From NCBI GenBank assembly GCA_965197855.1, contig OZ240230.1, positions 1,089,266 to 1,153,265 of the forward strand: a stretch of 64,000 nucleotides of DNA, written 5' to 3'. The notes beneath the pieces are model-generated. The model was not told where the DNA came from, searched no databases, and saw only the letters and a list, made by a program, of their open reading frames with translations. Shown one piece after another: positions 13,239 through 52,433 of the stretch. Made by a program: the position numbers and the translations under genes. Position 1 is the first letter of the stretch, and the number at the start of each line of letters is the position of its first letter. The stretch comes from Bdellovibrionales bacterium. GTDB taxonomy: Bacteria; Bdellovibrionota; Bdellovibrionia; Bdellovibrionales; UBA1609.

Positions 13239-14105
13239 ATGAAGAGAATGGATGGCAAGATAGTTGCTCAAACTTTGAAAGATCAAGTTACACAAGAAGT
13301 GCAGGGATTGAAAAAACAAGGGATTCATCCTAGCTTATGTGTGCTTTTGGCAGGGGACAATCCCGCAAGCGAAATTTATGTGAAACGTAAAATGATGGCT
13401 TGTGACGAAGTGGGTATTCGTTCAAAACTTTTAAAGTTTCCAAAAGATGTGCCGCAGGAAGAGTTAGAGCAAACATTAGATTCATTAAACCAGGATGAGC
13501 AAGTGCATGGTATTTTAGTTCAACTCCCTCTACCGAAACATTTAGATCAAAAGACTGTGCTTTCTTATTTATCTTCAAAAAAAGATGTGGATGCATTGAC
13601 CACTGAAAGTGTGGGAGCTTTATGGTCCTCCTCCTCTCTTGTACATCCCTGCCCCTGTACTCCTAAAGGTATTATGGCAATGCTTGAATATTATCAGATT
13701 CCCCTCGAAGGCCGTCATGTGGTGGTGGTGGGTCGTAGTTTGATTGTGGGTCTTCCTATGGTTCAGCTGTTATTGAAAAAAAATGCCACAGTGACTGTTT
13801 GTCATTCCAAAACACCTTCTTTAAAAGAGCATACAAAGATGGCTGATGTGGTGATTGCAGCTTGTGGAAAACATCATTTGTTGAAAGCTCAGGATTTTAA
13901 AAAAGGTGCTGTGGTGATAGATGTGGGGATTCATAGAATTTCCAAAGAGGGTAAGACCATTCTGCAAGGAGATGTTTGTCCGGATGGCTTGGAAAATGTT
14001 TTGGATTATTTCAGTCCTGTGCCAGGGGGAGTAGGCCCGATGACCATTGCTGTCTTACTTCAAAATACAGTTCAGCTCGCTCGCCATTTTTTTGATTCAA
14101 AGTAG
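13239..14105 (+). CDS. folD: Bifunctional methylenetetrahydrofolate dehydrogenase/cyclohydrolase
   Basis: 288 aa. Motifs GDNPASEIYVKRK, GILVQLPLP, VVVVGRSLIVGLP and PVPGGVGPMTIA are present. Confidence 0.9.
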   Translation: MKRMDGKIVAQTLKDQVTQEVQGLKKQGIHPSLCVLLAGDNPASEIYVKRKMMACDEVGIRSKLLKFPKDVPQEELEQTLDSLNQDEQVHGILVQLPLPKHLDQKTVLSYLSSKKDVDALTTESVGALWSSSSLVHPCPCTPKGIMAMLEYYQIPLEGRHVVVVGRSLIVGLPMVQLLLKKNATVTVCHSKTPSLKEHTKMADVVIAACGKHHLLKAQDFKKGAVVIDVGIHRISKEGKTILQGDVCPDGLENVLDYFSPVPGGVGPMTIAVLLQNTVQLARHFFDSK

Positions 14106-15124: not shown

Positions 15125-15224
15125 TGTCATCCTGACGAAAGTCAGGATCTCCCTCGTATACAACTGGATTCCGGCTTTCGCCGGAGCAAAGTGATGAGGT
15201 GCCAGCCGAAATCACTGAGCAAAA
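15125..15224 (-). repeat. Full two-hairpin GATGAC repeat element (inverted orientation)
   Basis: The reverse complement aligns along about 100 nt with 21590..21693. Hairpins are ATCCTGAC-GAAA-GTCAGGAT (15129..15148) and TCCGG-CTTTCG-CCGGA (15170..15185). Confidence 0.7.
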
Positions 15225-15582: not shown

Positions 15583-15834
15583 ATGAAGAAAAAAAGAGGA
15601 CAGGGGTTGATCGAATACCTGATCTTAGTGACTTTAATGGCTGTGGCTACCATTAGCATTGTACGGGTTTTAAATCAAACAGTGAAATCTCGTTTTGCCA
15701 ATGCCATTCACGCTCTGCAAGGCACTAATAAAAGAGTCAAGACAGACTCAGTGAAAAGTTCAGACTATCAAAAAAGTGATTTGAGTGATTTTATGAATGG
15801 AGCGGCCAGTGAACCCAAAACTAAGAAAAAATAA
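15583..15834 (+). CDS. flp: Flp-family type IVb pilin (long C-terminal tail)
   Basis: The track ORF starts at 15535. ATG 15583 has AAGGGGG 6 nt upstream. The N-terminus MKKKRG/QGLIEYLILVTLMAVATISIV fits the Flp G/XXXXEY processing motif followed by a hydrophobic helix. Confidence 0.7.
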   Translation: MKKKRGQGLIEYLILVTLMAVATISIVRVLNQTVKSRFANAIHALQGTNKRVKTDSVKSSDYQKSDLSDFMNGAASEPKTKKK

Positions 15835-16168
15835 TAAAAAAGGACAAGCTATTTTGGAATTTATTGTTCTGCTTTCTATTTATGTATTTGTTATTTTTTC
15901 TGTTTTTCAAATCTCATGGCTTTTGGGAGTTCGCTCCTATTTCAATCAGCAACTTTATGAATCTCTTTTTTGCATGGCTAAAGGTAATGCAGAGGCTCAC
16001 TGCGAAAAAGAGATAAGGAGGAAAAGTAGTTTTGTTTTATTTTGGGGAGAGATTAAAAATATTCATCTGAAAGGAGATAAGAGGAAATGGACAGGTTCTG
16101 TGGAAATTCAGCCTTGGAATATAAAGTTAAAAAGAATACTTCAAATCCCAGAGGATTTATTACAATGA
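15797..16168 (+). CDS. TadE-like pseudopilin (G/XXXXEF class-III signal)
   Basis: ...KNNKKG/QAILEFIVLLSIYVFVIF. An alternative start at GTG 15809 has GGAG 6 nt upstream. The gene overlaps the flp 3' end. Confidence 0.55.
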   Translation: MERPVNPKLRKNNKKGQAILEFIVLLSIYVFVIFSVFQISWLLGVRSYFNQQLYESLFCMAKGNAEAHCEKEIRRKSSFVLFWGEIKNIHLKGDKRKWTGSVEIQPWNIKLKRILQIPEDLLQ

Positions 16169-16818
16169 CATTATTAATACTATCTCCTTTATTTATTTCT
16201 ATATTTCTTTTGTCATTTTCATTTTTATTGGTGCTAAAGAGGCATAATCAAGCTTATTTTCTATGTTATAAAACAGGTGCAAAAATACAAAAGTCTCTTC
16301 AAGGTTCTTTGAAAAAATTAATCCGTATGAATATACAAGCGAAACTCTTACGAATCAGAAGAAATATTGCAGAGCTTAGATATAAATCTGCTGTCATGTC
16401 TTTAGAGCCGATAAATATATCAAAGGCCTGGAAGAATTTACAGGAAGTTAAGCTTTCACAAAAATCTTTTTCCAAAAAACAAGAGGGTATTTTACAACAG
16501 GCAAAAATCAGCCTTCAAGCTCAATGGCAGGTTTTTAAATTAAAATCCAAAAAATATATGCATCGAGTGAGAAAAACATTTACTTTGCCACCGCTGGCTG
16601 TTCGTAAAGAACCTACTTCCAGTGATTCTCCTGACTATGTGCCAGTTCAAAATTTTTCTAAAAATCAGAATATAAAAATTTCATGGAGTATGAATGGGTT
16701 TGCTTTAGTTCCTCAGTCATTACAAAAATACTTAGGGTTAAAGGGGAGTTCTCATCATCATTGTTCTGTGAGTTTAGATGATTTAAAAGACAGTTTTCAA
16801 ATTAAATTGATAAAGTAA
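16165..16818 (+). CDS. Membrane-anchored hypothetical protein of the Flp cluster (possible TadG-like)
   Basis: ATG 16165 forms an ATGA overlap with the upstream stop. N-terminal TM segment MTLLILSPLFISIFLLSFSFLLVL. The rest is Lys/Gln-rich with no recognisable motif. Confidence 0.4.
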   Translation: MTLLILSPLFISIFLLSFSFLLVLKRHNQAYFLCYKTGAKIQKSLQGSLKKLIRMNIQAKLLRIRRNIAELRYKSAVMSLEPINISKAWKNLQEVKLSQKSFSKKQEGILQQAKISLQAQWQVFKLKSKKYMHRVRKTFTLPPLAVRKEPTSSDSPDYVPVQNFSKNQNIKISWSMNGFALVPQSLQKYLGLKGSSHHHCSVSLDDLKDSFQIKLIK

Positions 16819-16840
16819 TTTTTTTTTAAAAGGAGGTCGT

Positions 16841-17020
16841 ATGAATAATAATAGAAAAAAAAGAGGCCAGGTAGTTATCGAGTTTATATGGATGATTATT
16901 TTTATCTTTGGTTTTCTCTCTTCGATTTTTTACTTGTATGATAAATCCGGAAAAGAAATTAAAAAGTATGAAATGGGTCGAAATGTGAATTATGGTTCAA
17001 CCAGCATTTTCTCTCATTAA
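16841..17020 (+). CDS. Second TadE-like mini-pseudopilin (59 aa; below the ORF-track cutoff)
   Basis: AGGAGG at 16831..16836 lies 4 nt upstream of ATG 16841. Translates MNNNRKKRG/QVVIEFIWMIIFIFGFLSSIFYLYDKSGKEIKKYEMGRNVNYGSTSIFSH*, with stop TAA at 17018..17020. Confidence 0.6.
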   Translation: MNNNRKKRGQVVIEFIWMIIFIFGFLSSIFYLYDKSGKEIKKYEMGRNVNYGSTSIFSH

Positions 17021-17462
17021 AAGTTATAAACAATATTTTGTTGTTTTTAGTGTGTTGGCTTTATTTTCATTGTTTTTTGCCTGGATTCACTATACAAGTA
17101 ACAAGGAAGAACCGGCACCTCTTGTTTTTCAAGTGTCGGATAATATTCCTCTGGGTTTTGTTATGGTGCCGATTGAGCTGGAAAATCATGAAGCAGTTAG
17201 TGACCTTATTTCATCTCATGGAGTGGTGGATCTTTATTATAAACCGGAGTACTTATCCACTCCTCATAAATTTGCAGAAGCTGTGCGTGCTGTACGTCTT
17301 CAAACAGGTCGTTTTTCAGTTTTAATTCCGGAAGATCAAGTTTCTCTCTTTTTAAAATCTTCGTTGATGTTTCATGCTGTGGTTCAAAATCCAAGTGCCA
17401 GCGGCTCCCGTATCCTGCGCCCGCGAAGAAAAAGATCCATTATTGTTGAGGCAGGTTCTTAA
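16992..17462 (+). CDS. Membrane-anchored protein, possibly a short CpaB/RcpC-like pilus assembly protein
   Basis: 156 aa with an N-terminal TM segment (YFVVFSVLALFSLFFAWI). IPLGFVMVPIELENHEAVSDLISSHGVVDLYY weakly resembles the CpaB C-terminal (RcpC) pattern. No SAF domain is seen. Confidence 0.3.
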   Translation: MVQPAFSLIKSYKQYFVVFSVLALFSLFFAWIHYTSNKEEPAPLVFQVSDNIPLGFVMVPIELENHEAVSDLISSHGVVDLYYKPEYLSTPHKFAEAVRAVRLQTGRFSVLIPEDQVSLFLKSSLMFHAVVQNPSASGSRILRPRRKRSIIVEAGS

Positions 17463-17463
17463 A

Positions 17464-18471
17464 ATGTTTCGATCTTTTTTTCTGCCTTTTATTTTACTGG
17501 TGACAATACCCTCCCACTCTATGCCAGTTATTTTAAAAGCTCCTCAAACTCCTGTGGAGGAATTTTTTGCGTATGTACAAACAGAAGATATCACCCCCTA
17601 TTCACAGAGACAGCTTGAAAAAATTCAAGAACAATCAGATTCCATTAAACATTTAAGGGTATTACTGGAGCAGGCACAAAAATCTTTTTTAAAAGATCAT
17701 TTGAATCAATCGGGAAATTACTTTCGCTCTGTTGTTAAAATGGCACATGAAAAAGATTGGGTGGATGAAGCTAAGAAAGTTATTTTTTATTCTTTTCTTC
17801 GGCTTGCTCAAATTGAATGGAAGGGTTTGGAATCAGAAGCTCTCTTGTATTCCGCTGTTGTTTTTGCTCCTCACTTGGATCCAGACACTCATTTATTTCC
17901 TCCGCCTTTAATTCAAAAATTTAACTCTATTAAGAAAAAACAAACTAAACTTTCTGTGTCTTTCCGGCAGGTTTTTCCTTTCCATGAGATTGTGTTGATC
18001 AATGGACGTCGTGTTTCTATGCAAGATATCGTTGAACTTTCTTATGGGGAATATAGAGTGACGGCTTTAAGTTCTTCTCATAAGAAATGGAGCCGTATTA
18101 TTTCTTTATCTAAGCTTGTGCAAAAAAGAATTATTACAACTCCATTAGTGAGTGGAAGCTGTCAGCATCCTATATTCTCTAAAGGTATAGATCAGAACCA
18201 AGTTCTTTTTCCAAACTTTTGTTTATGGGCGAATCATTTAAAAGAGAGTCCTTCCACAATGAATTCTTCACAACTTTATACTTCAAATAAAATTCAAAAA
18301 AATGTTGAGGATTTGCAGAGTACATCCCAAAAATTGAAAATTCAAAAGTGGGGAGCTTTAGTTTTAATTGCAGTAGGGGTCACAGCAGTTGCAATTGTCT
18401 TATGGAATGCGAAAGAATCTTCTAAAAAAGATTCTGCAAAAAGACCTCCAAAACTAAAGAAAGGTTTTTAA
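17464..18471 (+). CDS. Secreted, C-terminally anchored hypothetical protein (PEGA-like segment)
   Basis: The track ORF starts at 17374. ATG 17464, 1 nt after the upstream stop, gives a signal peptide (MFRSFFLPFILLVTIPSHS). EIVLINGRRVSMQDIVELSYGEYRVTALS is PEGA-like. It has a C-terminal TM segment (WGALVLIAVGVTAVAIVLW) and a basic tail. Confidence 0.4.
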   Translation: MFRSFFLPFILLVTIPSHSMPVILKAPQTPVEEFFAYVQTEDITPYSQRQLEKIQEQSDSIKHLRVLLEQAQKSFLKDHLNQSGNYFRSVVKMAHEKDWVDEAKKVIFYSFLRLAQIEWKGLESEALLYSAVVFAPHLDPDTHLFPPPLIQKFNSIKKKQTKLSVSFRQVFPFHEIVLINGRRVSMQDIVELSYGEYRVTALSSSHKKWSRIISLSKLVQKRIITTPLVSGSCQHPIFSKGIDQNQVLFPNFCLWANHLKESPSTMNSSQLYTSNKIQKNVEDLQSTSQKLKIQKWGALVLIAVGVTAVAIVLWNAKESSKKDSAKRPPKLKKGF

Positions 18472-19112
18472 TTTCCCTCTGTTTGAAGGTGATGAAGGTA
18501 TTGTTTTTCCAGTAAAGTATTTAATGTATCCCATTGTTTTTCTCTAGAATCGAGTTGTTCGGTTAAATCTTTAAAACGTTCTTTTAAATACGAGGGTAGA
18601 ACAGGCTGTCTTTCTGGTATTTTTTTTGAAGGGTAAGCTTCTGTAAACATCTTATTCCAGTTAAATTGTGTGCCTGGATCCACTTTGCCTCGAAACCCCG
18701 CAATATGCTCATGTCCCAGGATTCGATCCGGAGATTGAAGAGTTGGATAGATTTTTTGTAAATGCAGGATCAATTGAGCTAGAGAGCTGTATTGTTCCTC
18801 AGTATAATCAAATAAATTTCCATTGAAATTAACTAGTTCTACACCAATGGAGAAGTTATTAAGATTTTCCCATGTTTTCCAAACACTGTTTCCAGCATGG
18901 AAGGCTTTAAGAGGTTTTTTTAAACAAGGAACAATTTCGTAAATAATACCTTTTTGATCAATGACAATATGAGAAGATACCTTTTTGTCGGGGTTTTTAA
19001 AAATTTCAAAAGTTTTTTTCAAAGAACAGCCTGTATAGTGGAGAATTAAAAATTGTACATCGATAAAGGTATTGTCTGTGTTGGGGGAATGAAAGGGAGC
19101 TTTATATTTCAT
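18468..19112 (-). CDS. N-acetylmuramoyl-L-alanine amidase, AmpD-like (amidase_2 family)
   Basis: Motifs FLILHYTG, SSHIVIDQKGIIYEIV, AFHAGNSVW and NNFSIGVELVN are present. 214 aa. Confidence 0.75.
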   Translation of the reverse strand: MKYKAPFHSPNTDNTFIDVQFLILHYTGCSLKKTFEIFKNPDKKVSSHIVIDQKGIIYEIVPCLKKPLKAFHAGNSVWKTWENLNNFSIGVELVNFNGNLFDYTEEQYSSLAQLILHLQKIYPTLQSPDRILGHEHIAGFRGKVDPGTQFNWNKMFTEAYPSKKIPERQPVLPSYLKERFKDLTEQLDSREKQWDTLNTLLEKQYLHHLQTEGN

Positions 19113-19313: not shown

Positions 19314-20678
19314 ATGTCTATACAAAAGGTTTGGGAAAATTTCTTAAAATGGCTCAAAGAATACCGAGAAGAGCTTCTATTCCTGCTGATTACAGTAGGC
19401 TTGACTTTATCTGTGCAGTTAATTGGCTGTAACGATCAGATAGCTTTTAACTATAAACCTCCTATGAGCTGTGATGACTTTGATATGTCTGATTTGGATG
19501 ATGCCAACTGTGAGACGATTCCACCAACAACTGATGGTAGAGATGATGGATCTCTTGAATTTGTATCTGCAGACAGTGGAGGCCCGGGTGCTATCAGGCC
19601 AGTAGATCCAAATTTACCTGGTACAGGTTCTTTAACCCCAGTTCAAAATCCTTCCGGCCCTGATGTTATTAGGTTTTCCAATACATATAATATGGGAGTG
19701 GTGGATATTATTTTTGTGATAGATAATTCCAGATCTATGTATGTAGAACAGCAAAATATTGCCAACCAATTTGATCAATTTTTGGATAGTATAAAGTATT
19801 TAGACTATCGAATTGCTATGATAACTGTTGATACATCTGATTCTCCAAATAATGAAGATCGCACCTATCAGGATGGTCATTTTATTAAGTTTAGCAATGG
19901 CCGCAAATATCTTTCCAATGAAGAGGAGAGTCAGTCTCAGCATGAAGAGAATATTAGAATGTTTAAGAATGCAGTTCAGAGGTCTGAGTCGATCGAATGC
20001 ATGCAAGCAGGAAAGGCGGATTTGTGTCCGGATGATGAAAGAGCGATCTGTGCTTTAAACAAATCTTTGGATATTTCTTCTCAAAGGGATTTCTTTAGAA
20101 CCACGTCTCATTTAATGGTGATTATTCTTTCTGATGAAGATGAGAGGTCCTCTCAGGAATATCGTGAACAACAGTGGGCTTTGAATAGAACTGATTACAG
20201 ATTAAGATCTTGTGATGATCCTCGTAATTTTTACAGTAGAGTGGCTCAAAGAATTGGTGTGCATACAGGAATCAGTGTGCATGCTATTATTATTCCCCCT
20301 GGAGATGACGATTGTTTGGAAGAGCAGGATGAATCATTGGGTAAGGGTTACTATGGGGAAATATATGCAGATTTTGCTGAACCTTCAGGAAGTATTTTAA
20401 GAGAATACCCTTATATAACACCTGGGCAAGTTTTATCTATTTGTGATAGGAACTATGGAGCTCAATTAGGTCGTCTTTCTGAGTATTTGCAAGAGCCTTT
20501 GCCTATTACACTGCCTTGTGAGCCTTATCGGGTTCAGAATGTTCGCTTAGTGGATGATGGTGATAGTCAAAATATCAGATATGAATTAGAAGGGAAAAAT
20601 CTGACTATTCTGGAAGATCGAGTGTCCTTGTCTTCCCAGATCCGTGTAAATATTCTTTGTCCTGCAAGGACTGATTAA
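19314..20678 (+). CDS. VWA-domain protein, membrane-anchored or lipoprotein
   Basis: 454 aa. LTLSVQLIGCNDQ is a lipobox-like LIGC after a hydrophobic segment. VVDIIFVIDNSRSM carries a MIDAS DxSxS motif. Several Cys pairs are present. Confidence 0.55.
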   Translation: MSIQKVWENFLKWLKEYREELLFLLITVGLTLSVQLIGCNDQIAFNYKPPMSCDDFDMSDLDDANCETIPPTTDGRDDGSLEFVSADSGGPGAIRPVDPNLPGTGSLTPVQNPSGPDVIRFSNTYNMGVVDIIFVIDNSRSMYVEQQNIANQFDQFLDSIKYLDYRIAMITVDTSDSPNNEDRTYQDGHFIKFSNGRKYLSNEEESQSQHEENIRMFKNAVQRSESIECMQAGKADLCPDDERAICALNKSLDISSQRDFFRTTSHLMVIILSDEDERSSQEYREQQWALNRTDYRLRSCDDPRNFYSRVAQRIGVHTGISVHAIIIPPGDDDCLEEQDESLGKGYYGEIYADFAEPSGSILREYPYITPGQVLSICDRNYGAQLGRLSEYLQEPLPITLPCEPYRVQNVRLVDDGDSQNIRYELEGKNLTILEDRVSLSSQIRVNILCPARTD

Positions 20679-21532: not shown

Positions 21533-21557
21533 AAATTAGTTTCATAATAATGTACAG

Positions 21558-21693
21558 GGAGATTTCTGTCTTCGCGAGGATGACGTTTACTTTTGGCTCA
21601 GCGGTTTTCGGTTGGCACCTCAACCACTTCGCTCCTGCGAAAGCAGGAATCCAGATGAATATGAAGGAGATCCCCGCTTTCGCGGGGATGACG
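21558..21693 (+). repeat. Full two-hairpin GATGAC repeat element preceded by an extra degenerate hairpin module
   Basis: GGAGATTTCTGTCTTCGCGAGGATGACG (21558..21585) is a degenerate copy of GGAGATCCCCGCTTTCGCGGGGATGACG (21666..21693). Hairpin A is CCTGC-GAAA-GCAGG (21634..21647). Hairpin B is ATCCCCGC-TTTC-GCGGGGAT. Confidence 0.7.
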
Positions 21694-21886
21694 TGGTTTT
21701 GTGGGATTAACGGAAGTGGATGATGGAATATGGAAAGTAACCTTTATGGATTATGACATAGGTTGCTTTGATGAAGACAGTTGTAAGTTTGTTCCTTTGG
21801 ACAATCCTTTGGATAAACTGTCAATGATGTGTCCGGTATAAAGTGTCAGCGATGTTTCAGGTTGCACAAGTGTAAAACATGACTGA
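21692..21886 (+). pseudogene. C-terminal relic of an rve-superfamily (IS481-like) transposase
   Basis: Translates RGFVGLTEVDDGIWKVTFMDYDIGCFDEDSCKFVPLDNPLDKLSMMCPV*SVSDVSGCTSVKHD*. This matches the conserved ...VGL.EVDDGIW.V.FM.YDLGYFD......P..NPF..KV.PMSPV tail I recall from IS481-type transposases. There is no upstream catalytic domain, and an internal stop lies at 21839..21841. Confidence 0.5.
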
Positions 21887-27588: not shown

Positions 27589-29019
27589 CTATCGAGGGAA
27601 AGTACAGGTGAGTTTAGCGCCTTTGCCGCGTCTTCGGCTGGTCAAATAAACATGGCCTCCATGTTTTTCCATCACTTGTTTTACAATTGCCAATCCAATA
27701 CCTGTTCCGCCTTTTTCACGTGAGCGATCTTCATCCACACGGTAAAATCTTTCAAAAATACGGTGCTGGTGACGTAAAGGGATGCCTTCTCCATTATCTT
27801 TGACTGTGAGTAAAATAAAGTGTGGATGTTTTTCCCAAATAACATCAATTTCAGAATCTGCTGGTGTGTACTTAACAGCATTATGAACCAGATTGTAAAG
27901 CACTTGCTCCAGCCATTGACGGGAAGCTAATACCGTATCTGCTTTGAAAATATAGTTCATCTTGTGGTTACTCATTGGAATCGTTTCACAAGCCACTGCA
28001 GTGATTTCTCTGGTGTTCACTTCTTGTTTGTTTAAATGAGAAATAGAATCAATATGAGAGAGGCTTAAAAGGTCATCAATCAGTTCAATCAATCGAGCCA
28101 CATTCTTACTGACAATATTTAAAAAATTATTGATTTGGTCATACTTTTTTTCCTCTAAATCAGCGTACATTGTTTCTAAGAAACCTTTGATAGAAGTTAG
28201 AGGAGTTTTTAACTCATGTGAAACATTGGACACAAAATCAATATGACTTTTCTCTGTATTTTTAATTTCAGTTTTATCAAAAAACACAATCACAGCTCCA
28301 TTCACTTGGCTTTGAATGTGCACAAGAGGTGAAATAGAAATATTAAATATACGTGGAGCTTGGTATTCTCCTATATTTAATGTGAGATCCCAGTTAAATG
28401 TGGATCCTAATGTCAGACATTTTTCTAAATTTTCTAAAATTTCTTTATTATTGACAACCTCTTGGATGGGGTTTTGAGGCTCTATCATAGGAAATAAGTT
28501 TTTACTTTGTGGATTGGAAAAGATAATTGTCTTATGAGAATCAATAGCAATAATGGCATCAGAAACAGATGCGGCAATAGCTTCCAGTTCTGCTTTTTCA
28601 CGTATCAGGTGTACACTAGTTTGTTTAATATTCTTATAAATCAAATCCAGGTTTTTATTTAAGTCGTAAAACTCTCCGGGAGTTTGACTTGTCTCTATAT
28701 GTTTAAAGAGAGTTGACTGGCTTGTTGAAGTATTGTCTGGATTGGAAATATGGGCAATGCGTTCTATTTTTTGTATCACTGTCATTAAAGGCTTTAGATA
28801 TAAAAATGTTGCTAAAATACCTAAAGATAAACACAGGATAAATCCTAATAGCAGTAATAATATTGTGAAATAAAACAAAAATTCTTTAGGAATGACTGGA
28901 AAGATTGTTTTTGTCACAAACCATAGAAATAGAGAATAAACGATGAAGCCGGCTAAAGATATAAGAGAGTATTTTTTTAAAACCCATATCAATAAAGAAA
29001 AAGGAAATTTTTTATTCAT
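27589..29019 (-). CDS. phoR: Phosphate regulon sensor histidine kinase PhoR
   Basis: 476 aa with two N-terminal TM segments, a PAS-like region, an H-box FVSNVSHELKTPLTSI, an N-box LVHNAVKYT and G-boxes VKDNGEGIP and GTGIGLAIV. Last gene of the pst-pho operon. Confidence 0.85.
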   Translation of the reverse strand: MNKKFPFSLLIWVLKKYSLISLAGFIVYSLFLWFVTKTIFPVIPKEFLFYFTILLLLLGFILCLSLGILATFLYLKPLMTVIQKIERIAHISNPDNTSTSQSTLFKHIETSQTPGEFYDLNKNLDLIYKNIKQTSVHLIREKAELEAIAASVSDAIIAIDSHKTIIFSNPQSKNLFPMIEPQNPIQEVVNNKEILENLEKCLTLGSTFNWDLTLNIGEYQAPRIFNISISPLVHIQSQVNGAVIVFFDKTEIKNTEKSHIDFVSNVSHELKTPLTSIKGFLETMYADLEEKKYDQINNFLNIVSKNVARLIELIDDLLSLSHIDSISHLNKQEVNTREITAVACETIPMSNHKMNYIFKADTVLASRQWLEQVLYNLVHNAVKYTPADSEIDVIWEKHPHFILLTVKDNGEGIPLRHQHRIFERFYRVDEDRSREKGGTGIGLAIVKQVMEKHGGHVYLTSRRRGKGAKLTCTFPR

Positions 29020-46053: not shown

Positions 46054-47823
46054 ATGTCGCAGACTACAAGAAAACAATCACAACATAAAACTGCTTCCAT
46101 GGGTGAGCTTCTTGTTCAAAAGAAAATCATGAGCAAACAGCAGTTGGTAGAACTACAACAAAAGACAGGAGATAATGATAGAAAATTTTTATCTGTTCTA
46201 ACAGATATGGGTTATCTTTCTGAAACAGAAGTTGTATCATTTTTATCTGAACAGTATGGGTATCAAAGCATTGATATTGAAAATTTTGATATTTCTGAAA
46301 ATGTTCTAAAATTAGTACCTCAAAAATTTTGTGAGAAATATACAGTTATTCCTATATCTCGATTAGGAGACACCCTGGTGGTGGCTGTTGCAGATCCTGT
46401 AGATAGTATTTTAAAAGAACAGCTTTTATTTACCACAAAGTGTAAAATAGAATTTGTTTTATCGACGTCTACTGCTATTCGAAATGCGATTAATGCTTTT
46501 TATGCACAAAAGGAAGAGGGGATTCATAAGCTCTTTGCTGAGATTGAAGAATCCAGCATGAAGTTTCAAAAACGTTTAAATGCAGAGGCTGATACTGAAG
46601 ATGAGGAGGAGGCGGCTATTATCCATTTGGATGCCAACGATTCAGAGCCTGTCGTTCGTTTTGTGAATCATGTTATTATCAGTGCTCAAAATAAAAGAGC
46701 TTCTGATATTCACATTGAATCTTATGAGAAAAAATGTCGTGTACGTTTTCGTATTGATGGAAAACTTCATGAAATGTTTCATCCTCCTAAAACAATATCT
46801 CCATATATCATTAGCCGTATGAAAGTGATGTCTAACTTAGATATTGGAGAGCGCCGAAAACCCCAGGATGGACGTTTAAAAGTTAAAATGCAGCAAGGTA
46901 AAGAGTTGGATTTTCGTGTGTCTATTGCTCCTACAGTGAGCGGCGAAAAAATTGTGATGAGGGTTTTGGATGATTCAGCTATTTCTGTTGGTTTTCATGA
47001 TTTGGGTATGACTAAAATAGAGGCTTCTACCTTTCAAGAGGCATTGAATCAGCCTCAAGGTCTTATTCTTATTACAGGCCCTACAGGAAGTGGTAAAACT
47101 ACAACTATTTACTCAGGTTTGAATTTGTTAAATATTCCCGAGAGAAATATTTCAACAGCGGAAGATCCGGTAGAATATAAAATTGAAGGTTTAAATCAAG
47201 TGCAAATGCATGCAAAAATTGGATTAACTTTTGCTTCTGCTTTACGTGCTTTTTTAAGGCAAGATCCGGATGTGATTCTGGTGGGTGAGATTAGGGACTA
47301 TGAGACAGCTGAGATAGCTTTTAAAGCGGCGTCCACAGGGCACTTGGTGGTGAGTACTATTCATACGAATGATACACCATCCACTGTTACCAGGCTGTTG
47401 GATATCGGGATACCAGACTACAGTATAGCTGAAAATATCAGTTTAATTGTTGGGCAAAGGCTATTACGTAGAATATGTTCTCGGTGTATTATGTTAGACA
47501 ATGTCTCAAAGGATTCCTTAAAACAACTCGGATTCTCTGATAGTCAGATGGAAAAAGCTCAAGGAAAGATTAAAAAAGGTAAAGGGTGTCGTGTTTGCTC
47601 TAATATCGGATATAAAGGGAGAGTGGCTGTTTATGAAATGCTTAAAATCACCGATAATATAAAAAAGGGTATATTTGATAAAATGGTTCCTCTGGATTTG
47701 AAAAAACATGCGATAAAATCTGGGGAACTCAAAACACTTAGACGAAGTGGAATAGAGAAAATGATTCAAGGAGTAACAACTTTTGAAGAAGTTTTATATG
47801 GAACAGTAGGAGATTTTCGATGA
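46054..47823 (+). CDS. pilB: Type IV pilus assembly ATPase PilB (GspE family)
   Basis: 589 aa. The N-terminus SMGELLVQKKIMSKQQLVELQQK is MshEN-like, a possible c-di-GMP motif. It has a T2SSE_N domain, Walker A GPTGSGKTTT, the Asp and His boxes, and a tetracysteine motif CSRC...CRVC. Confidence 0.9.
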   Translation: MSQTTRKQSQHKTASMGELLVQKKIMSKQQLVELQQKTGDNDRKFLSVLTDMGYLSETEVVSFLSEQYGYQSIDIENFDISENVLKLVPQKFCEKYTVIPISRLGDTLVVAVADPVDSILKEQLLFTTKCKIEFVLSTSTAIRNAINAFYAQKEEGIHKLFAEIEESSMKFQKRLNAEADTEDEEEAAIIHLDANDSEPVVRFVNHVIISAQNKRASDIHIESYEKKCRVRFRIDGKLHEMFHPPKTISPYIISRMKVMSNLDIGERRKPQDGRLKVKMQQGKELDFRVSIAPTVSGEKIVMRVLDDSAISVGFHDLGMTKIEASTFQEALNQPQGLILITGPTGSGKTTTIYSGLNLLNIPERNISTAEDPVEYKIEGLNQVQMHAKIGLTFASALRAFLRQDPDVILVGEIRDYETAEIAFKAASTGHLVVSTIHTNDTPSTVTRLLDIGIPDYSIAENISLIVGQRLLRRICSRCIMLDNVSKDSLKQLGFSDSQMEKAQGKIKKGKGCRVCSNIGYKGRVAVYEMLKITDNIKKGIFDKMVPLDLKKHAIKSGELKTLRRSGIEKMIQGVTTFEEVLYGTVGDFR

Positions 47824-48896
47824 TTACTATGCTTCAATTATTTAAAACTGCGGTTTCTCAGGGAGCTTCTGATTTACACGTTTTGGCAGACAGCCCTCCT
47901 GTGTTGCGAGTCAATAGTCGTATCTCCAGAATTGATCATTCTTCTTTAACACCGGAACAAACTAAAGAGCTTTGTTTTTCTATCTTAAATGAAAATCAAA
48001 AAGCGGAATTTGAAAATAAAAGAGTTCTCGATTTTAGCTTTGCGGTGGGAGATCAATATCGTTTTAGGGGTCACCTGTATTTTCAAAAAGGAAGTATTGG
48101 GGGTGCTTTTCGATGTATTCCTACAGACATTCCTCAGCTAAAGACTTTAGGGCTTCCGAGTTCTGTGTTTGATATGCCTCGATACCCTCATGGCTTGGTG
48201 TTGGTAACAGGGCCTACGGGTTCAGGGAAAAGTACAACATTAGCCGCAATGGTTAAAGAAGTGAATCATATTAAAAGAGGACTCATTGTGACTGTTGAAG
48301 ATCCTATTGAGTATGTACATACACATGATAAATGTGTGATTTTGCAAAAAGAGTTAGGCACAGATATTTATACTTTTGGAGATGGGCTGAGGGCGGCCTT
48401 AAGGGAAGATCCTGATGTGTGTTTAGTGGGTGAGATGCGGGATAAAGAGACCATTACAACAGCCCTTCATACAGCAGAGACAGGTCACTTGGTTTTGTCT
48501 ACACTCCATACAAATACTGCTTTCGATGCTGTCGAAAGGGTGATTGGTGTATTTGGCGGTGAGGAAAAAGCTCTCATTCGAAATCAATTGAGTAACTCTT
48601 TAAGGGCTGTTCTTTGCCAAAGACTTTTGCCGACAATGGATGGACGCGGTCGTGTCTTATGTTATGAATTAATGTATGCAACAGTAGGTGTAAGAAATTT
48701 AATTCGTGAAGGAAAACAACACCAGCTTTATTCTCTAATGTTGACACAACAGCAGGAAGGTATGGTGACTTTTAATCAATGTTTGGCAAGGCTTGTGAAA
48801 TCCAATAAAATTTCTATTGAAACAGCTTTGGAATCAACTTCGATGCCTAAGGAATTGGAAACTTTAATTAAACGTTCTATCACAGAAGTAGCTTAG
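47820..48896 (+). CDS. pilT: Twitching motility ATPase PilT
   Basis: 358 aa. ASDLHV, GPTGSGKSTT, EDPIEY and GHLVLSTLHTN are present. ATGA overlap with pilB. Confidence 0.9.
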   Translation: MITMLQLFKTAVSQGASDLHVLADSPPVLRVNSRISRIDHSSLTPEQTKELCFSILNENQKAEFENKRVLDFSFAVGDQYRFRGHLYFQKGSIGGAFRCIPTDIPQLKTLGLPSSVFDMPRYPHGLVLVTGPTGSGKSTTLAAMVKEVNHIKRGLIVTVEDPIEYVHTHDKCVILQKELGTDIYTFGDGLRAALREDPDVCLVGEMRDKETITTALHTAETGHLVLSTLHTNTAFDAVERVIGVFGGEEKALIRNQLSNSLRAVLCQRLLPTMDGRGRVLCYELMYATVGVRNLIREGKQHQLYSLMLTQQQEGMVTFNQCLARLVKSNKISIETALESTSMPKELETLIKRSITEVA

Positions 48897-48909
48897 GGGG
48901 GAGTGAGAC

Positions 48910-50127
48910 ATGCCTGTATATCAATTTAGAGCCAAAGACCCCAGTAGACGTGTTGTACAAGGTCGCGTTAAGGCAAATTCAAAAGATGAAGTCGAACGTA
49001 AATTAATGTCCAGACAATTGGTGTTAATTAGTGCATCTGTTCAAGATACAAAGAAGTCCTTTAATTTGTTAGAAATAAATATTGGGGGGATTAGTCATAA
49101 AAAAGTTGTTTTGGCCACCCGACAGCTGGCTTTCCTTGTCAAAGCCAGTGTTCCTATTGCTCAAGCTTTGGATATCGTAGGAAAGAATACAGATGATGCT
49201 CCTTTAAGGAAAATTTTTGAAGAGCTTGCTCAAGGTATTATAGCAGGAAAATCTTTTTCTGGTTCATTATCAGCATACCCAAATGTGTTTGATGAATTGT
49301 ATGTGAATATGGTTCGTGCGGGTGAAGAAGGGGGAAGTTTGGATGTTATGTTGAACCAATTAGCTACTTACATTGAGAAAACAGAGAGTATTAAAGGTCG
49401 AGTGAAGTCTTCAATGATGTATCCTGTGTTTGTGGGTATTGTGGCTATTCTTATTGTGATTGGGATGATTGTATATTTGGTTCCAAAGTTTGAAGAAATA
49501 TTTGCAGAAGCGGATCAAGAGCTTCCAGCCGTTACTCAATTGCTTGTGGATGCGAGCGATTTTATGAGAAATAACTCAGTACTGCTCATCATACTAGTGC
49601 TTGGTTTGGGTATTTCTTTTATGATGTTTATTAAGTCAGAATATGGTTGCAGAGTATGGGAAAGATTTTTAACGCACATTCCGGGTCTTGGAAATTTATT
49701 CGTCAAAAATAATGTAGCTCGATTTTCCCGTACTTTATCTTGTTTGTTATCTGCTGGGGGCAATATTGTCGAATCTATTAAAATTGCAGGTAAATCATCC
49801 GGAAGTGTGTTGATGAAAGATGCTTCAGTAAGGGTTTCTGATTCTGTAGAGAGGGGATTTAGACTGGGAAAGTCTCTGGCCAGTGAAAGTATCTTTCCTA
49901 GCTTGATGAGGAATATGATTGTTTCCGGAGAACAGACGGGTAATGTAGATGATATACTTATGAAAATTGCTGAATTTTGTGAAGAGCAAGTGGATGCCGC
50001 TGTCAATGGTATTATTAAGATGATTGAGCCAGTGATGATTGTGGGGGTGGCCTTGGTGATAGGATTTATAATTATTGCTCTTTATTTACCTATTTTCAAA
50101 ATGAGTGGAGCTTTGGCAGCAGGTTAG
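48910..50127 (+). CDS. pilC: Type IV pilus platform protein PilC (T2SSF family)
   Basis: 405 aa with duplicated T2SSF domains. Starts MPVYQFRAKD and ends ...ALYLPIFKMSGALAAG. Confidence 0.9.
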   Translation: MPVYQFRAKDPSRRVVQGRVKANSKDEVERKLMSRQLVLISASVQDTKKSFNLLEINIGGISHKKVVLATRQLAFLVKASVPIAQALDIVGKNTDDAPLRKIFEELAQGIIAGKSFSGSLSAYPNVFDELYVNMVRAGEEGGSLDVMLNQLATYIEKTESIKGRVKSSMMYPVFVGIVAILIVIGMIVYLVPKFEEIFAEADQELPAVTQLLVDASDFMRNNSVLLIILVLGLGISFMMFIKSEYGCRVWERFLTHIPGLGNLFVKNNVARFSRTLSCLLSAGGNIVESIKIAGKSSGSVLMKDASVRVSDSVERGFRLGKSLASESIFPSLMRNMIVSGEQTGNVDDILMKIAEFCEEQVDAAVNGIIKMIEPVMIVGVALVIGFIIIALYLPIFKMSGALAAG

Positions 50128-50128
50128 T

Positions 50129-51160
50129 ATGATGGTAGAGACACTGATTCCTTCTTGGGTTAACATTTTTCGTTCATTATTTCATGTTTCTTTATTTGTT
50201 ATGGGCTTGGCTTATGCTTTTGCTCAACCGTCGTTTTTAAATGCTGAGGTATGGGTGTTTATTTATTCCCTGGCTGGAGTGGCTTTAATTTTTGATGCTC
50301 TTATTTTTATTTTTCAAAAAGAGTTTAAAGCTTGGCCTATTATTTATTGTTTTGATGCTTTGTTTGTTGCTTTAATTATGTACCGCACGGGTTATGTGTT
50401 TTTTGGAGCTTTGTCTTTTATATGGCTTATCCATATTTTATTTGCTGGTTTGCAATTTCAATACAAGGGCTCTCTTTTGCAGGGGCTTTGGACTTCTTGT
50501 GTATTTACTTGGGTTCATTTTATTTCTCCTCACTTTTCATCTATTGATGGAGTCTTTTTTGCCTTCAACAATTTCCTTTTTCTTTTAATGGCTTTTTCAG
50601 CTGGATTTATGGGAACATATTTTTATCAGTGGATTTCTTCATTTCAAAATCTTTATTGGAAGATGCGACGTTCTTTCACTCACCCTCTCCGTCATTTTCA
50701 CTGGGATGCTTTCCTAGATGATGAAGAAGGATCTTCTTCTCATCAGGAAAAATTGAATGTCAATGAGTTAGTGCAAGAGGTGGTAGAGCATATCCATTCA
50801 CAAACAAAATTTCAGTCTGTTCAACATCATCTCTCTGATGTTTCTATTATTTTTGGAGATAGAAGTAAGTTGAAGAGGGTGATTATTAGTTTGATTCAAT
50901 GGTTTTTTCATACTTATAGTGATTTTCAAAAATTGAAAATAAAAACTTATAGTGATGGGTTATGGACTGTTATTCAATTGGAAAAATTAGGAGTGGCTCA
51001 AGCCAAAGAGCCTCTCCAAATTTTTAATTGGCTTAAGGGATTTAATTTAATCCAGAAAGTGATTGAGGAGCATGGGGGTCAGATTGAGGTTTCTAATAAA
51101 ATGAATTCTTTGTATATCCGACTTCCAAGTGGTGAAGATACAACACAACAGGTCAGTTAA
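50129..51160 (+). CDS. PilS-like polytopic membrane sensor with a degenerate kinase core
   Basis: ATG 50129 lies 1 nt after the pilC stop. About six TM segments are followed by a short cytoplasmic part. SFTHPLRHF is a weak H-box-like string. No clear N-box or DxGxG G1 box was seen, although the C-terminus IEEHGGQIEVSNKMNSLYIRLP resembles the end of an HATPase_c domain. Confidence 0.45.
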   Translation: MMVETLIPSWVNIFRSLFHVSLFVMGLAYAFAQPSFLNAEVWVFIYSLAGVALIFDALIFIFQKEFKAWPIIYCFDALFVALIMYRTGYVFFGALSFIWLIHILFAGLQFQYKGSLLQGLWTSCVFTWVHFISPHFSSIDGVFFAFNNFLFLLMAFSAGFMGTYFYQWISSFQNLYWKMRRSFTHPLRHFHWDAFLDDEEGSSSHQEKLNVNELVQEVVEHIHSQTKFQSVQHHLSDVSIIFGDRSKLKRVIISLIQWFFHTYSDFQKLKIKTYSDGLWTVIQLEKLGVAQAKEPLQIFNWLKGFNLIQKVIEEHGGQIEVSNKMNSLYIRLPSGEDTTQQVS

Positions 51161-51161
51161 A

Positions 51162-52433
51162 ATGAAGAATGTGGATGCAACAAAAATGGTTTTGGTTATT
51201 GATGCTGACCCACATATTCACTCTTTGTTTAAAGCCTTATGTCATCAAATATCTATTCCAATCGAATTAACTCTTGCAGATCATTTTGATCGTGCTAAAA
51301 GTTTGTTAAATAACAAAAGTTTTCACGTTGTCATTGCTGATTCAGCTTTGGTTTCTCAAAAGGACTGGGTTTTTTCTATCCCTATTTTGTGGATGGGTGA
51401 TAGATATGGCAAGGATGAGAACTATATTAGAAAGCCTTTTTCCATAACAGATGTTAAAATGAGAATTGAGAAACTTCTTTGTAGTTTCAATAATATAGAA
51501 ATTATAGGGTCATCGATACAACAACTTTTAGATCAAATGGTACAAGTTGCTTCTTACGATACTTCGATTCTTCTGACAGGGGAGAGTGGTACGGGTAAAG
51601 AGTTATTTGCTCGTTTTATCCATCAGAATAGCAAGAGATCTTTAAATAATTTTATAACTGTTCATTGTGGGGCTATTTCAGAAAATTTAATGGAATCAGA
51701 ATTTTTCGGACATAAAAAAGGCAGTTTTACAGGAGCTGTTTCTGATAAAAAAGGTTTTTTTGAGATCTCTCATAAGGGAACTTTGTTTTTAGATGAACTG
51801 GGAGATTTGCCTTTGCATTTACAGGCTAAATTACTTCGTGTTGTTCAAGATAAAAAGGTGCGACCTGTGGGATCATTGGAGGAGTATGAGGTAGACGTAC
51901 GAATTATTTCTGCTACTAATCAAAATTTGGAGCAAATGATTCAAAAACAAATATTTCGTGAAGATTTATTTCATCGTTTAGCGGTCATTTATTTGAATCT
52001 GCCTCCATTAAGAGAAAGAAGAGAGGATATTCCTCTTTTAGCTCAATATTTTTTAGAAAAAAATAAGAAAAATTATAAGAAAAAAAATCTAAAATTTTCC
52101 AAAGAGGCTTTTGAGTATTTACAAGAGTATAAATATCCTGGAAATATTAGAGAGTTGGAAAATATGATTGAAAAAGCTGTTTTGTTTTCTACAGGGGATC
52201 TCATTGATAAGAAAGATTTATCTCTCCGAGAGAACAAAGAGGCAAGCAATGTACTTAATTTTGCATTTCCTTCAGAGGGGATGGACTTAATTCATGTTAT
52301 GCGTCAAGCAGAAAAACAAATCCTTTCGGAAGCTATTCATCGATCCAAGGGGAATCGAGAGGAAGCCGCTCAACTATTGAAAATCACTCCCAGATCCTTG
52401 AAACATCGGATTCATAAATATAAACTAGCTTAA
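51162..52433 (+). CDS. Sigma-54-dependent response regulator (PilR-like)
   Basis: The track start GTG 51129 was replaced by ATG 51162. Receiver (VLVIDADP..., VVIADSAL, IRKPF), AAA+ domain GESGTGKELFARFIH, the GAFTGA variant GSFTGA, and a C-terminal Fis-type HTH (NREEAAQLLKITPRSLKHRIHKY). Confidence 0.8.
   Translation: MKNVDATKMVLVIDADPHIHSLFKALCHQISIPIELTLADHFDRAKSLLNNKSFHVVIADSALVSQKDWVFSIPILWMGDRYGKDENYIRKPFSITDVKMRIEKLLCSFNNIEIIGSSIQQLLDQMVQVASYDTSILLTGESGTGKELFARFIHQNSKRSLNNFITVHCGAISENLMESEFFGHKKGSFTGAVSDKKGFFEISHKGTLFLDELGDLPLHLQAKLLRVVQDKKVRPVGSLEEYEVDVRIISATNQNLEQMIQKQIFREDLFHRLAVIYLNLPPLRERREDIPLLAQYFLEKNKKNYKKKNLKFSKEAFEYLQEYKYPGNIRELENMIEKAVLFSTGDLIDKKDLSLRENKEASNVLNFAFPSEGMDLIHVMRQAEKQILSEAIHRSKGNREEAAQLLKITPRSLKHRIHKYKLA

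Follow-up and report, generated by a model that had tools for sequence, protein, structure and literature searches.

A probable Tad-pilus filament module without adjacent motor genes in a reduced-genome Bdellovibrionales lineage

Tad (type IVc, Flp) pili belong to the type IV filament superfamily. They are built from a Flp pilin together with TadE/F pseudopilins that carry a G/xxxxE[YF] leader (the slash marks the cleavage site) cut by an A24 prepilin peptidase. Canonical examples are single loci with a dedicated TadV/CpaA peptidase, such as flp-tadV-rcpCAB-tadZABCDEFG in Aggregatibacter and pilA-cpaA-L in Caulobacter. Here we describe a six-gene cluster, G1 to G6, within 64 kb of chromosomal DNA (hereafter the window) from a Gram-negative bacterium with a G+C content of about 36%, whose nearest relatives in the genome collection, metagenome-assembled genomes (MAGs) under the label 'Bdellovibrionales bacterium', have chromosomes of 1.0-2.3 Mb. 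The cluster resembles the canonical Tad/Cpa loci in combining a Flp pilin with TadE/F-type pseudopilins that bear this leader. Unlike them, it forms a separate pilin module, and TadV, TadZ and TadD were not seen.

Two predatory bacteria provide the closest described precedents. Bdellovibrio bacteriovorus has its tad genes in at least five separate loci, one of which is a stand-alone rcpA-tadA module; it lacks TadV, and Flp1 is cleaved in Escherichia coli by PilD, the type IVa peptidase (bioRxiv 10.64898/2026.07.08.737194). Strain HD100 carries tad locus 1 at bd0109-bd0119 (flp1, flp2, ..., rcpC, rcpA, tadZA, tadB) and rcpA-tadA as locus 2, with tadC, tadG, flp3 and flp4 lying separately and PilD serving as the peptidase. 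Every one of the Bdellovibrio-and-like organisms (BALOs) examined carries flp genes away from its tad locus, and predation requires flp4 (PMC5430801). In the Kil system of Myxococcus xanthus, the major pilin KilP and four 'tip' clusters are encoded apart from the machine genes. The tips combine KilL/M/N (TadE/F/G-like) with the Flp-like adapters KilK and KilO, the latter 59 residues long, and the charged C-terminal part of KilP has been proposed to coat the fibre (PMC12075869). For the window's own reduced-genome lineage, we found nothing specific in the literature.

We propose, with a probability of roughly 0.7, that G1-G6 are a module of a Tad-type pilus, providing its filament, tip and alignment functions. 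Genes for the motor, platform, secretin and peptidase probably lie elsewhere in this genome. The separation of the module from its motor is a clade-specific rearrangement in a group where scattered Tad genes and peptidase sharing have been described before. The cluster consists of six co-oriented open reading frames (ORFs), overlapping or abutting, between folD and an Amidase_2 gene:

15583..15834, plus strand: G1, predicted Flp-type major prepilin of 83 residues, with a class-III leader, Flp_Fap matches and BLASTP matches to Tad-locus pilins
15797..16168, plus strand: G2, putative TadE-like minor pilin (pseudopilin) of 123 residues, with KKG/QAILEF and a sub-threshold TadE match
16087..16818, plus strand: G3, pilin-like protein without Glu5, 243 residues from a revised start, with a conserved RG/F leader and an AGGAG site
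16841..17020, plus strand: G4, Flp-like mini-pilin and candidate tip adapter of 59 residues, with KKRG/QVVIEF and a profile match to G1
16992..17462, plus strand: G5, predicted bitopic inner-membrane protein of 156 residues, with an N-terminal transmembrane (TM) helix, in the RcpC/CpaB position
17464..18471, plus strand: G6, predicted periplasmic protein of 335 residues with a C-terminal TM anchor, from an AlphaFold2 (AF2) model

The initial annotation had given all six ORFs these boundaries, apart from the start of G3. Its suggestion of a single operon is strengthened by the shared orientation, the overlapping or abutting ends and a gene order conserved in relatives. Good Shine-Dalgarno sequences precede G1, G3 and G4. 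A promoter and terminator scan of the locus gave a result no better than shuffled sequence, and an Rfam scan of 14-22 kb returned no matches.

The class-III leaders are both locally confined and strongly conserved. A strict pattern (K or R, then G, four residues, E and 16 uncharged hydrophobic residues) applied to all six frames of the window recovered G1, G2 and G4 only: three matches within 1.3 kb and zero in the other 62 kb. Far from being absent in orthologues, G/QxxxE is invariant in all of them (10 of 10 for G1, 11 of 11 for G2 and 12 of 12 for G4), and the Gly, Gln and Glu5 persist across loci whose G6 proteins share just ~25-35% identity. Scan and alignments together uphold the three proteins with [KR]G/QxxxE ahead of a hydrophobic helix that had been recognized earlier. 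That count was too low, as G3 has a conserved [RKQS]G/F N-terminus and makes a fourth; by their sequences, four proteins of the cluster (G1-G4), not three, are predicted to carry pilin-like class-III leaders. Cleavage after the Gly and assembly of G1-G4 into a filament would be expected from these leaders.

G1 combines the leader MKKKRG, a predicted cleavage at G/QGLIEY, a single hydrophobic helix and a conserved polar tail, and its ribosome-binding site, AAGGGGG, lies 7 nt upstream. Residues Gly6 to Leu15 of the prepilin are invariant in 10 orthologues, whose alignment also reveals a tail motif, ALQG..K.KT..D[YF]QKSDLSxFMNGAAS, followed by a Lys-rich end. This is the most conserved gene of the cluster, at 63-92% identity where G6 has 33-67%. 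All 10 orthologues match Flp_Fap (best E 3e-5) and Class_IIIsignal (best E 7e-5), every score being sub-threshold, and the family profile finds weak matches in the PDB to geopilin N-termini, Caulobacter PilA and Flp type IVb pilins.

Matches to CpaC led us to two complete Tad-type loci for comparison, L014 from Paraburkholderia saeva and L016 from an Atribacterota MAG. Each encodes RcpC, a CpaC-type secretin with PF13629, an FHA-T2SSE ATPase, two T2SSF proteins, and TadE and Tad-domain proteins. Their first genes encode pilins of 96 and 92 residues with RG/QGMTEY, one helix and a long polar tail, which G1 matches by BLASTP at E = 7e-12 and 9e-6. All three share the subtype RG/QG(M/L)xEY with one helix and a polar tail of ~45 residues, and the G1 tail, initially regarded as unusually long, is normal for this subtype. 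These similarities argue that G1 is a Flp-like major prepilin of a Tad (type IVc) pilus. The likeness extends to minor pilins that begin G/Q...E, to TadG-like proteins with G/Q and no Glu5, and to a pilin-like gene of 62-67 codons directly before RcpC, followed by the secretin and ATPase. Unlike the window, L014 and L016 are complete and contiguous, their minor pilins are 273-531 residues long and reach the Pfam TadE/Tad thresholds, and they have no G6-like gene. In neither locus was a gene for an A24 prepilin peptidase seen within 10 kb of the secretin. In each, the ATPase is fused to an FHA domain and tadC is followed by a DUF192 gene.

The leader of G2 ends in KKG/QAILEF, in which all 11 orthologues retain G, Q and E, and the protein has two conserved Cys residues. 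TadE is matched by four of the 11 orthologues and TadF (PF16964) by one. In an hhalign profile comparison, G2 aligns with the TadE proteins of L014 and L016 at P = 1e-4, across 31 N-terminal columns only. The earlier designation of G2 as TadE-like therefore holds for the N-terminus, with its leader and processing site, but its Pfam score is sub-threshold and the likeness does not extend further. We accordingly describe G2 as a putative minor pilin that is TadE-like in its N-terminus.

G3 begins with a leader ending NPRG/FITMTLLIL, followed by a helical middle and a C-terminal beta region with two conserved Cys residues. Of 12 orthologues, 11 share the pattern of [RKQS]G/F and a hydrophobic helix without Glu5; G23 and F24 do not vary among the 11 that were aligned, and the protein of L004, outside the alignment, has G/L. 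This leader is encoded only if translation begins upstream of the start assigned initially (16165). The AGGAG ribosome-binding site ahead of 16087 and the conservation of the leader make 16087 the most likely start, and in L005, L010 and L012 the ORF encoding the leader lies clear of G2. In the window, G2 and G3 overlap in two frames over 82 nt (16087-16168); both peptides are conserved in L002 and L003, and the distant L005 and L010 have no overlap. G3 matched nothing in Pfam (including PF13400), NCBIfam or the PDB, and its hhalign comparison with TadG-like proteins was not significant (E = 0.14, TM segment only). Its RG/F N-terminus resembles the G/Q N-termini without Glu5 of the PF13400 proteins in L014 and L016.

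G4 has a leader ending KKRG/QVVIEF, one helix and a short basic tail, and G, Q and E are invariant in its 12 orthologues. It has no Pfam Flp match; hhalign aligns it with the G1 family over the leader and helix (P = 2.4e-5, probability 75%). The 62-67-residue pilin-like proteins of L014 and L016 are encoded in the equivalent position, directly upstream of RcpC. We consider G4 a candidate tip adapter. The parallel with the M. xanthus Kil system includes the 59-residue Flp-like protein beside larger minor pilins, the location of pilin and minor-pilin clusters away from the machine, a charged or polar C-terminus on the major pilin, and some pilins probably processed by a peptidase encoded elsewhere. 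Unlike Kil, the cluster has two larger minor pilin-like proteins, not three, together with the extra non-pilin proteins G5 and G6, and its major and minor pilins share one operon; these comparisons are of gene content and arrangement.

The last two genes encode membrane-anchored proteins. G5 is conserved in all 28 of the loci compared and consists of an N-terminal TM helix and a periplasmic domain of ~110 residues (IPEGFVLVPIE..N...GVVDLY...FYAVIQNP). Among 12 orthologues, no Pfam family was matched at E <= 10, including RcpC/CpaB (PF16976) and SAF (PF08666), nor was there a PDB match or a meaningful NCBIfam one. A weak hhalign match to RcpC of L014 and L016 spans 40 columns where the RcpC domain begins (P = 0.0077, probability 5%), and the single-sequence AF2 model is too poor for use (mean predicted local distance difference test, pLDDT, 57). 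In relatives, G5 follows the small pilin-like gene and precedes G6, with the secretin and ATPase further on; in L014 and L016 the parallel order is 62-67-residue gene, RcpC, secretin, ATPase. We retain the initial label of weakly CpaB/RcpC-like mainly because of this gene position, as the profile likeness itself stays weak.

For G6, AF2 with a 39-sequence alignment gave a model with pLDDT 82.5, exceeding 90 for residues 21-255. The predicted architecture comprises a signal peptide, a TPR-like helical domain (~31-134), a beta domain (~160-255) with two conserved Cys residues, a disordered linker and a C-terminal TM anchor, beyond which lies a conserved P..KKGF. Foldseek against the PDB yielded weak TPR-like matches only (E >= 0.05), and there was no sequence match in Pfam, NCBIfam or the PDB. 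Of the earlier description of G6 as PEGA-like with a C-terminal anchor, the anchor stands, but the PEGA profile (PF08308) is not matched and the model has TPR-like and beta domains instead. The family is large, with 623 clusters at 50% identity, nearly all of 320-400 residues and none with an informative name; 10 distant cluster members were all named 'hypothetical protein' or had no name. G6 thus represents a candidate new domain family, tied to Tad loci, for which Pfam has no model.

Comparison with relatives places the cluster beside Tad machinery. We compared 28 loci: the window, other genome loci and longer metagenome contigs. The order G1-G6 is conserved throughout, in seven genome loci, five more reached via homologues, and the metagenome contigs. 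Twenty of the 28 encode a CpaC-like secretin and a TadA-type ATPase 1-9 kb downstream of G6. L011, for example, has a 430-residue secretin and a 384-residue ATPase 2 kb downstream of its G6 homologue. The best matches of this ATPase are the TadA family (TIGR03819, E = 5e-53) and VirB11/TrbB, not PilB/PilT, and the nearest relatives of the secretin outside the lineage are CpaC proteins with PF13629. In L011-L013 the secretin-ATPase pair adjoins aspS. The pair also lies downstream of the cluster in L005, L006, L007 and L012, and in each of the 15 metagenome loci reaching 6 kb or more past G5/G6. There the order is folD, G1-G6, one or two large opposite-strand genes, a gene for a REC-histidine kinase, secretin and ATPase.

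None of the loci showed a TadZ or A24 peptidase gene beside the cluster. A tblastn search of 80 metagenome loci with TadB, TadC, RcpC, TadG and TadE of L014 and L016 as queries gave no matches, these queries probably being too distant to inform.

The kinase is a REC-HisKA-HATPase hybrid encoded immediately (~1 kb) upstream of the secretin in most of the metagenome loci, namely L030, L033, L036, L040, L041, L056-L058, L062, L066-L068 and L076, and its proximity to the secretin-ATPase pair suggests two-component control of the Tad module in these relatives. The window encodes a kinase of a similar family at 27589-29019; it is PhoR-like, lies in a pst/phoU cluster and by context is no orthologue of the hybrid kinase. 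The large opposite-strand genes between G6 and the secretin code for proteins of 590-880 residues that belong to no Pfam family and are absent from the window. Some of these proteins carry long low-complexity regions rich in Gly, Met, Asn and Gln. Their genes lie at:

L006, 11017-15724, minus strand
L005, 11947-14355, minus strand
L007, 10960-13446, minus strand
L012, 3040-7559, minus strand
L058, 14041-16296, minus strand

The remaining eight loci are unlinked. They comprise L008-L010 and the window's own clade (the window, L002-L004 and L097), in which an amidase and a 454-residue lipoprotein, G8, follow G6 in place of the secretin/ATPase block. The genes flanking the cluster in the window are:

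13239-14105: folD, upstream flank
18468-19112, minus strand: Amidase_2 gene directly after G6, convergent with the cluster
19314-20678, plus strand: G8, predicted VWA-like lipoprotein of 454 residues, with the lipobox LIGC and a weak VWA match

The VWA match of G8 (E = 0.11) starts at a DxSxS sequence resembling a metal ion-dependent adhesion site (MIDAS). G8 has no pilin-like N-terminus and no meaningful match in Pfam, NCBIfam or PDB sequences. VWA proteins are often pilus-tip adhesins.

Within this unlinked clade, the ratio of nonsynonymous to synonymous substitution rates (dN/dS) is 0.02-0.30 for all six genes (window versus L002 or L003), with synonymous sites near saturation. The proportion of nonsynonymous differences in G1 is 0.044-0.05 against 0.69-0.76 for synonymous ones, a tighter constraint than in folD or gcvT. 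G1-G6 are therefore alive in the unlinked clade. The initial annotation called the cluster an orphan. There is indeed no cognate machinery in the window, but because the secretin and ATPase are linked to G1-G6 in 20 of the 28 loci, this is a derived, clade-specific state.

The window and B. bacteriovorus belong to the same phylum-level group and have a Flp pilin with G/xxxxEY, dispersed genes and no TadV nearby, and the window's relatives reproduce both the order pilin, minor pilins, RcpC-position gene, secretin, TadA and the stand-alone rcpA-tadA pair. Unlike the TadZA fusion of B. bacteriovorus, the ATPase of the relatives is a plain 384-residue TadA-type protein, and TadB is adjacent in no locus. 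The TPR, beta-domain and C-terminal anchor arrangement of G6 has no described counterpart in the B. bacteriovorus Tad system, as judged without direct comparison to the Bd0113-Bd0119 sequences.

The window itself agrees with the machinery inventory made initially. Among ORFs of at least 120 residues, Pfam or tblastn detected no Tad ATPase, secretin, A24 peptidase or, apart from PilC, T2SSF platform protein; ORFs at ~31-40 kb were checked by tblastn with secretin and TadA probes only, not Pfam. Homologues of the relatives' secretin, TadA-type ATPase and intervening families are likewise missing from the window. Its sole pilus motors are the type IVa PilB and PilT, encoded with PilC at 46-50 kb. 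This region (46054-52433) continues after pilB, pilT and pilC with genes for a 351-residue protein without a Pfam match and a PilR-like sigma-54 activator, and no type IVa major pilin with G/FTLIE is encoded in the window. The absence of Tad machinery is unsurprising because the window is <5% of a ~1.4-Mb genome and because Bdellovibrio tad genes are scattered and lack TadV. Of the two explanations offered initially, machinery encoded elsewhere and service by a non-cognate system, the former is the better, given the linkage in relatives and the dispersed tad genes of Bdellovibrio.

These observations suggest the following model, in which we infer the roles of G3-G6. G1, G2, G3 and G4, with their class-III leaders, would insert into the inner membrane and would be cut after the conserved Gly. 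The A24 prepilin peptidase responsible would come from a gene elsewhere, the most likely candidate being the type IVa PilD, as in B. bacteriovorus. G2 and G3 as minor pilins, with G4 as a possible adapter, would prime and cap the G1 filament, and the polar, Lys-rich G1 tail would coat the filament surface. G5, in the RcpC position, and G6, with its periplasmic TPR and beta domains and C-terminal anchor, may bridge the inner-membrane platform and the secretin. Polymerisation would require a TadA-type ATPase, a TadB/C-type platform and a CpaC/RcpA-type secretin. A rearrangement just after G6 would have broken the linkage to the secretin and ATPase in the window's clade, leaving these genes most likely elsewhere on the 1.4-Mb chromosome.

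Several results weigh against this model. G1 scores 17.2 bits with Flp_Fap (PF04964; gathering threshold 32.2) and 18.1 bits with Class_IIIsignal (gathering threshold 23.7), and G2 scores 18.8 bits with TadE (PF07811; E = 1.8e-3), missing the cutoff of 22.9. No homology to TadF/G, RcpC or TadD was detected for G3, G5 or G6, which also sets these three apart from the B. bacteriovorus system. TadB/C was not seen adjoining the cluster in any relative, and within the window's clade no Tad ATPase, secretin, TadB/C, TadZ or A24 peptidase was seen in the window, L002-L004 or L097. None of ~10 large contigs of the clade is among the listed TadA-like or secretin matches, a weak negative since the secretins of L011 and L007 and the ATPase of L005 were also missed.

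This last group of absences is what an alternative model would predict, in which the window's clade lost the Tad motor and secretin and leaves the processing and assembly of its Flp-type pilins to the non-cognate type IVa PilD, PilB/PilT/PilC and PilQ. The rcpA-tadA block is missing after G6 in all five loci of the clade while G1-G6 remain under strong purifying selection, the window carries a complete PilB-PilT-PilC set, and in B. bacteriovorus PilD is common to the type IVa and Tad systems. That precedent, however, covers peptidase sharing only, and we know of no case of Flp pilins polymerised by PilB/PilC. The window is also a small fraction of the genome, the database searches were of incomplete recall (two of the four query secretins, those of L011 and L007, were not recovered by the secretin profile), and the unlinked L008-L010 indicate that lost adjacency is common and need not mean gene loss. 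We consider such a handover to the type IVa machinery unlikely. Similarly improbable is the more general proposition that the clade discarded the Tad ATPase and secretin, with the type IVc filament built by PilB/PilC/PilQ or the 'pilins' adopting a filament-independent role.

The filament module proposed here might also assemble a short periplasmic or contact-dependent pseudopilus, similar to that of a type II secretion system (T2SS) or Myxococcus Kil, which would deliver effectors to prey or host rather than act as an adhesive fibre. This differs from the Tad pilus we favour in output, not in kind. Tad systems of predatory relatives serve prey invasion and killing rather than adhesion, the small genomes of the lineage encode Ank and LRR proteins that suggest dependence on host or prey, and the REC-histidine kinase gene linked to the secretin-ATPase pair in relatives would be in keeping with such a role. 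No effector-like genes were identified in the operon, and the G1 tail resembles the surface-exposed tail of a fibre pilin; we judge a dedicated delivery pseudopilus to be doubtful.

Lastly, that the cluster is a decaying remnant, or that the class-III-like N-termini are fortuitous in ordinary small membrane proteins, might be argued from the sub-threshold Pfam scores and the lack of family assignments for G3, G5 and G6, but is very improbable and already contradicted by the conservation data, given the low dN/dS at saturated synonymous sites, the invariant G, Q and E despite divergent G6 proteins, the 20 loci linked to a secretin and TadA-type ATPase, and a motif found nowhere else in the window.

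If the Tad-pilus model is correct, a large uncultured branch of the Bdellovibrionota possesses a compact, highly conserved six-gene Tad 'filament module', and three unannotated families (G3, G5 and G6) could join the models used to detect Tad systems. It would also extend the picture of scattered, peptidase-sharing predatory Tad systems, drawn from Bdellovibrio and Myxococcus, to reduced genomes, and pilin clusters without nearby motors in these lineages should not count as orphans. Scattered Tad genes in predatory bacteria are already known; what is new is a lineage-specific variant with three unannotated accessory families. Its importance would rise only if the clade truly lacks a Tad motor.

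Two further sequences in the window may be small mobile or repetitive elements. A perfect palindrome, GTCATCCTGACGAAAGTCAGGATC, occupies 15126-15149 in the intergenic region between folD and G1 and occurs as one copy in the window. At 21550-21723, a spurious ORF gives the peptide ...IPAFAGMT..., of the sort that commonly arises when repeat elements are translated.

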